Virus record (IMG/VR): IMGVR_UViG_2718217885_000006
DNA: 45,337 nucleotides
Direction: 5' to 3' (one strand)
Source: a virus
Taxonomy: Duplodnaviria > Heunggongvirae > Uroviricota > Caudoviricetes
Of this stretch, positions 12,977 through 13,220 are shown one piece after another (the stretch's first letter is position 1; each line of letters starts with the position of its first letter). Made by a program: the position numbers and the translations under genes. The notes beneath the pieces were generated by a model that saw only the letters and a program-made list of their open reading frames with translations, was not told the origin of the DNA and searched no databases.

Positions 12977-13220
12977 ATGACTTTTACCCCTGAACAACTA
13001 CGTAAACAGGCACAGGAAATGTTGCGACAGGCGGAACAACTGGAAAAAAACAGGTGTAACAAAAGATGCCATTCGTAAGGATATGGTGCCAGCGCTCAGG
13101 GAACTGATGCAGGCGAAACACCGCGCACAAAAAGCAGTGGATGAGCTGGTGGATTGTGTGGCAGAGCTGGAAACCAAAGTTGGAAAGTTTGAAAAACTGG
13201 TGCAGGAGGTGCTGCGCTGA
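12977..13220 (+). pseudogene. small coiled-coil protein gene split by a frameshift at an A7 tract
   Basis: Frame A (ATG 12977) stops after 33 codons; the frame shifted by one nucleotide continues from the A7 run (13044-13050) to a stop that overlaps the rusA ATG (TGATG). Confidence 0.35.

Follow-up and report, generated by a model that had tools for sequence, protein, structure and literature searches.

In phages, the tail assembly chaperone pair G/GT is made through a programmed -1 frameshift, reportedly described by Xu, Hendrix and Duda in 2004. A likely genuine frameshift of this type lies in the DNA analysed here (the window; 45,337 nucleotides of a Caudoviricetes virus, IMG/VR record IMGVR_UViG_2718217885_000006) at 32257-32264, across ORFs 31882-32268 and 32280-32570: the upstream ORF closes with GTT AAA AAA AAG TAG, which contains A_AAA_AAG, and the -1 frame continues KKVALPGMRFLMM... 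to 32570. Adventitious frameshift rescue by transcriptional slippage at poly(A) runs is described by Baranov et al. (2005, PMC1088944) and Koscielniak et al. (2018, PMC6260861). According to PMC6260861, slippage by E. coli RNA polymerase is detectable from 7 T upwards and takes more bases when the run is A, and selection against runs in bacterial genes is visible from ~9 nt (PMC1088944). Closest to the locus considered here are an intact 85-aa hypothetical protein from lambdoid and Stx phages (WP_001041869.1; BCI49058.1 of phage Stx1_14040; phiP27; PHROG 2565), the ortholog of the window's gene, and a pseudogene called by PGAP in two E. coli genomes (GJ12_RS31330 in 09-00049 and ACZ52H_RS11640 in OkiPb01715).

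An earlier note on the window had drawn attention to a small gene that is split at a run of seven A and coupled to rusA, and every element of the layout that it listed is present. An ATG at 12977-12979 opens a frame that reads MTFTPEQLRKQAQEMLRQAEQLEKNRCNKRCHS (33 codons), that is, MTFTPEQLRKQAQEMLRQAEQLEK followed by NRCNKRCHS, up to the stop TAA 13076-13078, with the A7 run at 13044-13050. A second frame is open from 12981, after TGA 12978-12980, contains ATG 13083 and stops at TGA 13218-13220, the final A of which is the first base of the rusA ATG at 13220 (TGATG). Deleting one A from the run fuses the two frames, as had been proposed. We conclude that the site is very probably a frameshift pseudogene, the product of an ordinary inherited +1A mutation in one prophage haplotype, a reading supported by intact one-frame relatives, purifying selection, the recurrence of A7 in independent genomes and the lack of conservation of the run. 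The features are as follows.

11574-12965, plus strand: DnaB-type replicative helicase gene (Pfam DnaB_C, 4.5e-72; annotated 'replicative DNA helicase' in relatives)
12950-12953, plus strand: GGAG Shine-Dalgarno-like motif, read from the sequence, with an 8-nt spacer to TTG 12962
12962-13220, plus strand: the whole gene, very probably a pseudogene; minus one A it is a 258-nt CDS for an 85-aa protein identical to P0001
12962-13078, plus strand: 5' fragment of the disrupted gene, from TTG 12962 (internal ATG 12977) to the stop TAA 13076-13078; 29 native codons, then 9 out-of-frame codons (NRCNKRCHS)
12992-12999, plus strand: GAACAACT, an IS66 target site in other genomes and empty in the window, from comparison with 09-00049 and OkiPb01715
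13044-13050, plus strand: A7 homopolymer, the +1A insertion site, from alignments with relatives
13083-13220, plus strand: 3' fragment of the disrupted gene, native codons 41-85, from ATG 13083 or GTG 13086 to the stop TGA 13218-13220
13220-13579, plus strand: rusA, Holliday-junction resolvase gene (Pfam RusA, 5.4e-15), its start overlapping the small-gene stop
15196-17899: IS66-family element (tnpA 15281-15931, tnpB 15931-16278, tnpC 16298-17869)

The helicase gene ends at TGA 12963-12965, and the small gene's TTG start shares bases with that stop (TTGA). A DnaC/IstB-like ATPase gene precedes the helicase gene, and the two are the replication module of a lambdoid prophage. Homopolymers of at least 7 bases occur across the window as 8 A-runs and 7 T-runs, and an A7 alone is not unusual; the run at 13044-13050 is meaningful because most relatives keep the interrupted gene intact. 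Runs of 8 bases lie at 14868 (A8, inside the AraC-like ORF), 20201 (A8), 20402 (G8), 23860 (T8) and 40864 (A8). Minus-strand ORFs at 12790-13062 and 12998-13228 were set aside, as the third-position periodicity of SNPs fits the plus-strand frame.

A 401-nt query of the region had matches in 308 complete genomes of E. coli and in 37 phage records; Stx1a-converting phages, phiP27 and Stx2a-converting phages are among the latter. The annotations of E. coli N96 and of the Stx1a phage Stx1_14040 show a single 258-nt CDS here, running from the helicase-overlapping TTG to TGATG. Alignment with the closest relatives revealed one consequential difference, A6 there versus A7 in the window, and their translations are uninterrupted 85-aa proteins. 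Most relatives examined carry GAA AAA ACA (A6) or GAA AAG ACA at the run site within one open frame. With one A removed, the window's protein is 100% identical to P0001 (85 aa), which is present on 613 contigs, and other intact 85-aa alleles are found on about 1000 contigs each. The earlier note had proposed aligning orthologous regions; A6 relatives do read one frame through the site, which favours the genuine frameshift mutation that it had listed among its options, as does the inheritance of the A7 haplotype described below.

The small-gene frame reaches upstream of ATG 12977 to TTG 12962, where relatives have their annotated start. In Stx2-type homologues codon 6 is not ATG (LNNRTTTVSPEQL...), which leaves TTG as their sole usable start, and their Shine-Dalgarno region is kept as (C/T)GGAGCGTTT(A/C)TTTTG; a Klebsiella phage homologue has ATG at codon 1. 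Because of these two kinds of homologue, sequence comparison places the real start at TTG 12962, not ATG 12977, and the predicted intact protein is 85 aa long, not ~80.

The ancestral ORF is a real gene, and both of its halves are under purifying selection. Against 74%-identical Stx2-phage and PhiR49_2 homologues and the Klebsiella phage homologue, Nei-Gojobori dN/dS was 0.10-0.22, and in the same comparison synonymous change far exceeded replacement change in codons 2-39 and in codons 41-85 alike. When closely related haplotypes are compared, their SNPs lie at third codon positions of the repaired frame, upstream and downstream of the shift alike. Six genomes encode a protein identical to P0001 with genes that carry 7-10 substitutions, all of them synonymous, relative to the repaired gene of the window; one synonymous difference among P0001-encoding alleles is an AAA to AAG change that breaks the A-run. 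An alignment of 26 homologues, reaching down to ~30% identity, spans both sides of the shift site, with the conserved domain starting at TPEQLR (residues 9-14) and extending to the C-terminus and with A24, K39, L41, P43, D60 and D64 invariant or nearly so. The upstream helix (TPEQLRxQA...) lies within the conserved domain in all homologues. This conservation, together with SNPs that are synonymous or at third positions, refutes a gene limited to the downstream 45-aa part, the only part made under one alternative in the earlier note; orthologues conserved in the short downstream ORF alone, which that note had named as a refuting observation, are the opposite of what the comparison shows.

The repaired protein matched two profiles annotated as being of unknown function, phrog_2565 (2.4e-32, profile positions 121-203 of 204) and phrog_2539 (6.4e-18), in both cases over the C-terminal 80 positions of a profile of ~200 positions. 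Searches of Pfam, NCBIfam, PADLOC and PDB profiles returned only sub-threshold coiled-coil-like noise, and an exhaustive profile-free search of 1.84 billion representatives yielded 33 clusters in all, among them stand-alone proteins of 80-93 aa. AlphaFold2, run on the 26-sequence alignment, predicted one continuous helix over residues 10-84 (mean pLDDT 86.7), with pLDDT of 76-79 for residues 21-40 and 94-98 for residues 41-85. The ~80-aa helical protein of the earlier note was thus helical in this prediction; its length and start give way to 85 aa and TTG 12962. Each stand-alone homologue examined follows a replication gene, either immediately or with one small ORF in between; this replication gene encodes a DnaB-type helicase, an HTH_36/Phg_2220_C initiator or a P2 GPA-type initiator, and Dam, DUF968, RusA or Q genes come next. 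The small gene thus closes the replication module whichever of these replication proteins the phage has. It probably encodes a small accessory protein expressed with the early replication/nin transcript.

The 80-aa helical domain is also found at the C-terminus of phage proteins of 170-265 aa (phrog_2539; P0138, P0153-P0158, P0162-P0167; L014-L017), the genomic position of which is less consistent. Their N-terminal regions have no Pfam match; some carry a CxxC...CxxC Zn-ribbon, which in two long forms weakly resembles HNH/endonuclease VII PHROGs. Their contexts are heterogeneous (one after an HTH_36 initiator, one after an N-like protein and one in a phage with a weak Gp23-type capsid-protein match), and the long forms yielded no functional lead.

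The neighbourhood on the 3' side is mosaic. Across 52 IMG/VR loci, the gene that follows the small gene is RusA in 21 and Q in 31 (two Q antiterminators, 19 and 12), and the TGATG junction (window 13218-13222) is constant whatever the downstream partner. From this variable partner at a constant junction we infer that TGATG is a mosaic recombination boundary. rusA is a variable module outside the small gene's conserved unit, and the functional pairing with rusA that the earlier note had implied is not supported. The slot after the antiterminator holds variable cargo, including KwaA/KwaB in L084, HEPN plus GmrSD-like genes in L087, type I R-M plus PemK in L018 and porins in other relatives; in the window it holds an AraC-family regulator (14212-15108), followed by IS66 and TerB-like genes. 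The window's IS66 copy at 15196-17899 is absent from that site in 09-00049 and OkiPb01715, and N96 has an IS66 at the window-equivalent position 18038, inverted. These differences in IS66 site among near-identical prophages indicate recent, repeated transposition in the prophage lineage.

The A7 allele is real and inherited, because the identical haplotype recurs in independent assemblies. When A7 and A6 versions of a 67-nt probe were run against 5426 complete E. coli genomes, A7 matched 2 exactly and A6 matched 49, with ~95 more matching the A6 probe with SNPs. The two A7-exact RefSeq genomes are 09-00049 (USA, lettuce) and OkiPb01715 (Japan, bovine faeces); their flanks are 100% identical to the window, and PGAP calls the ORF a 'frameshifted' pseudogene, so that the A7 allele is already flagged in RefSeq for two genomes. 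In both, an IS66-family element also lies inside the A7 ORF, with the target duplication GAACAACT (window 12992-12999). Among complete E. coli RefSeq genomes none combines A7 with an IS66 at 15196; the nearest sequence is a draft assembly, GCA_045749135.1, which is 99.99% identical to the window over 8.1 kb, with a contig that breaks off at the IS.

A degenerate scan of IMG/VR gave 52 loci, comprising 48 A6 alleles, 3 A7 alleles and 1 AAAAAT allele, the last of which replaces Thr by Ser in frame. L038, L044 and L048, the loci with A7, carry the window's haplotype without any IS66, and A7 was restricted to that haplotype in IMG/VR. The 48 A6 alleles represent about 25 distinct haplotypes with the ORF intact in all, and none of them is an A6 copy of the window's haplotype. 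Gene callers report the orphaned C-terminal half as a 45-aa product (P0121) or, with GTG 13086 as its start, as a 44-aa product (P0124), the latter present on 61 contigs. A7 was found in 7/9 of the P0124 loci retrieved (L020-L026), all identical to the window over 12366-13222 and drawn from two NCBI assemblies and five different SRA runs (NCBI and Logan). Their wider flanks differ from the window by 1 to 49 SNPs (98.4-99.99% identity), some with different upstream modules, and within the gene no two A7 copies of the window haplotype differ. From A7 loci with and without IS66 it follows that the A7 mutation is older than the IS66 insertions and has passed through many genomes. The haplotype makes up ~1-6% of copies and has persisted through recombination of adjacent modules; because of that share, A7 is not strongly counter-selected. 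Its persistence is compatible with a dispensable gene and also with residual function.

We propose the following sequence of events. The ancestral gene would have been a single ORF of 85 codons (258 nt, TTG 12962 to TGA 13220), translationally coupled to the upstream DnaB-type helicase gene through the TTGA overlap. Replication slippage, the probable mutational mechanism, would then have added one A to GAA-AAA-ACA (A6 to A7) in the window's haplotype. Translation from TTG 12962 would now exit the native frame after Lys29, add nine foreign residues and stop at TAA 13076-13078, leaving the C-terminal 45 native codons stranded in another frame, and protein function would be expected to be lost. 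The A7 allele is heritable, was tolerated and has spread, some of its descendants being degraded further by IS66 insertion. Wild-type protein would be made in traces at most, when tRNA-Lys occasionally slips by +1 on AAA-A or RNA polymerase occasionally leaves out an A; either a +1 slip or the loss of one mRNA A would restore the native LEKTGV exactly.

The same gene is disrupted in other ways elsewhere. L003 carries an independent A7; its haplotype is clearly distinct, with CGG at codon 38, Q downstream and many SNPs in the helicase gene, and there the shifted frame extends to 60 aa (P0148). Other contigs have a G>A change plus one extra A, giving A8 (L004), A5 plus another 1-nt deletion (L008), or Ns at the run (L006); these look like errors or private mutations. 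A second recurrent inactivating allele, a 22-nt deletion equivalent to window 13033-13055 that removes the A-run, was observed in L007, L018 and L019, on other haplotypes with Q downstream. Disrupted alleles account for ~1% of copies by contig counts and for 3/52 in IMG/VR. These data suggest that the run region is a mutational hot spot and that the gene is dispensable in lysogens.

There is a small chance that the A7 allele still functions, either through halves that assemble after termination and reinitiation or through low-level +1 slippage on AAA-A; if so, reinitiated halves or slippage would explain its persistence and spread through recombining prophages. The premature TAA lies 4 nt before ATG 13083 and may permit reinitiation and synthesis of the C-terminal half. 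A functional split gene, with reinitiation at ATG 13083/GTG 13086 and peptides of 38 aa and 44/45 aa that reassemble, or with a C-terminal half that suffices, seemed to us slightly less probable again. Such an arrangement would fit the 4-nt distance from stop to restart, an AAGGA at 13077-13081, a break placed in the least conserved, lower-confidence segment between two conserved helical stretches, and an allele that has persisted and spread. However, no homologue is naturally built as two ORFs, the spacer between AAGGA and ATG is just 1 nt, which is poor, and the IS66 in two A7 genomes, the 22-nt deletion and sporadic indels in the ORF suggest plain dispensability in lysogens.

A homopolymer sequencing or assembly error, which the earlier note had raised and under which the genome would truly be A6 with the gene intact, is very improbable. 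Homopolymer indels are the commonest error on several sequencing platforms, and the one-off contigs with odd run lengths (L008, L004 and L006) resemble errors or private mutations. The window's exact A7 haplotype, however, is found in at least 12 sequences that were produced independently, in different countries and laboratories (L020-L026, L038, L044, L048, 09-00049 and OkiPb01715), and an error here would have to match exactly an allele that exists elsewhere.

We gave scarcely any credence to programmed recoding, in which the A7 run would have evolved for +1 ribosomal frameshifting or transcriptional slippage, to give either the 85-aa protein or a regulated ratio of short to long products. 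A +1 slip of tRNA-Lys from AAA (13046-13048) to AAA (13047-13049), or deletion of an mRNA A, recreates the native protein, and a rare AGG codon lies two codons past the run in the zero frame. However, a conserved slippery run or two-frame layout was not found, most relatives examined being A6 with a single frame; GAA AAG AC(A/G), a synonymous break in the run, stands at this site in the Klebsiella homologue and in many alleles of E. coli, and the two-ORF layout is confined to one haplotype and sporadic singletons. The zero-frame motif A_AAA_AAC is a -1 heptamer, and its -1 frame stops after four codons (GGA AAA AAA CAG GTG TAA); a productive slip at 13044-13050 would be +1 or -2, not -1. No stimulatory fold beyond shuffles was detected at 13051-13110 (z = -0.23); longer fold windows downstream of the run gave z = -1.7 to -2.0 with no positioned hairpin. 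An Rfam search of the region gave no hit above E = 0.2, and a promoter and terminator scan of it found nothing relevant. At 7 A, the run falls short of the ~8-9 A or more associated with transcriptional slippage, and on the thresholds in PMC1088944 and PMC6260861 we judged it too short for slippage by E. coli RNA polymerase. The translational frameshift site suggested in the earlier note is therefore rejected, given a run that is not conserved, a -1 slip that meets a stop and a region without a stimulatory structure. Just as improbable is a phase-variable contingency locus with reversible A6/A7 switching of the gene: the run is a mutational hot spot with A7 on a second haplotype (L003) and with A5 and A8 variants, but run length goes with the haplotype and does not vary among near-identical copies (at least 10 window-haplotype copies are all A7 and ~25 other haplotypes all A6), many alleles have an AAG-interrupted run, and 6-7 bases is short for a phase-variable tract.

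For annotation, the frameshift pseudogene reading means one frameshifted pseudogene of a conserved 85-aa phage protein at 12962-13220, not two small ORFs or a recoding site. It also marks the A6 run as a hot spot of recurrent mutation in a gene widespread among Stx/lambdoid phages, the loss of which is tolerated in lysogens. Natural A6/A7 pairs on nearly identical prophages offer handy isogenic material for studying the function of PHROG 2565.

Among described loci, the PGAP pseudogene of 09-00049 and OkiPb01715 shares with the window the A7 allele, 100%-identical flanks and the downstream rusA, DUF1133 and AraC-like genes; it differs in that its ORF carries an IS66 at GAACAACT, whereas the window's ORF is broken by the extra A alone. 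The intact orthologs occupy the same place after a DnaB-type helicase gene, with the same TTGA and TGATG overlaps and 96-98% nucleotide identity, but keep one frame open, with A6 or GAA-AAG-ACA at the run. With the tail assembly chaperone G/GT the locus shares a homopolymeric A-run that joins two overlapping phage frames; in G/GT, the two-frame layout and slippery heptamer are conserved across phages, whereas the 13044 site is not conserved and lies in the wrong direction for a productive -1 slip. Slippage rescue at poly(A) runs has in common with the window a +1A homopolymer indel at which deletion of one mRNA A restores the frame. In the bacterial cases on record the run is ~8-9 bases or more, compared with 7 A in the window, and because 7 A is below the length at which slippage by E. 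coli RNA polymerase is detectable, transcriptional rescue of the A7 allele is expected to be negligible.
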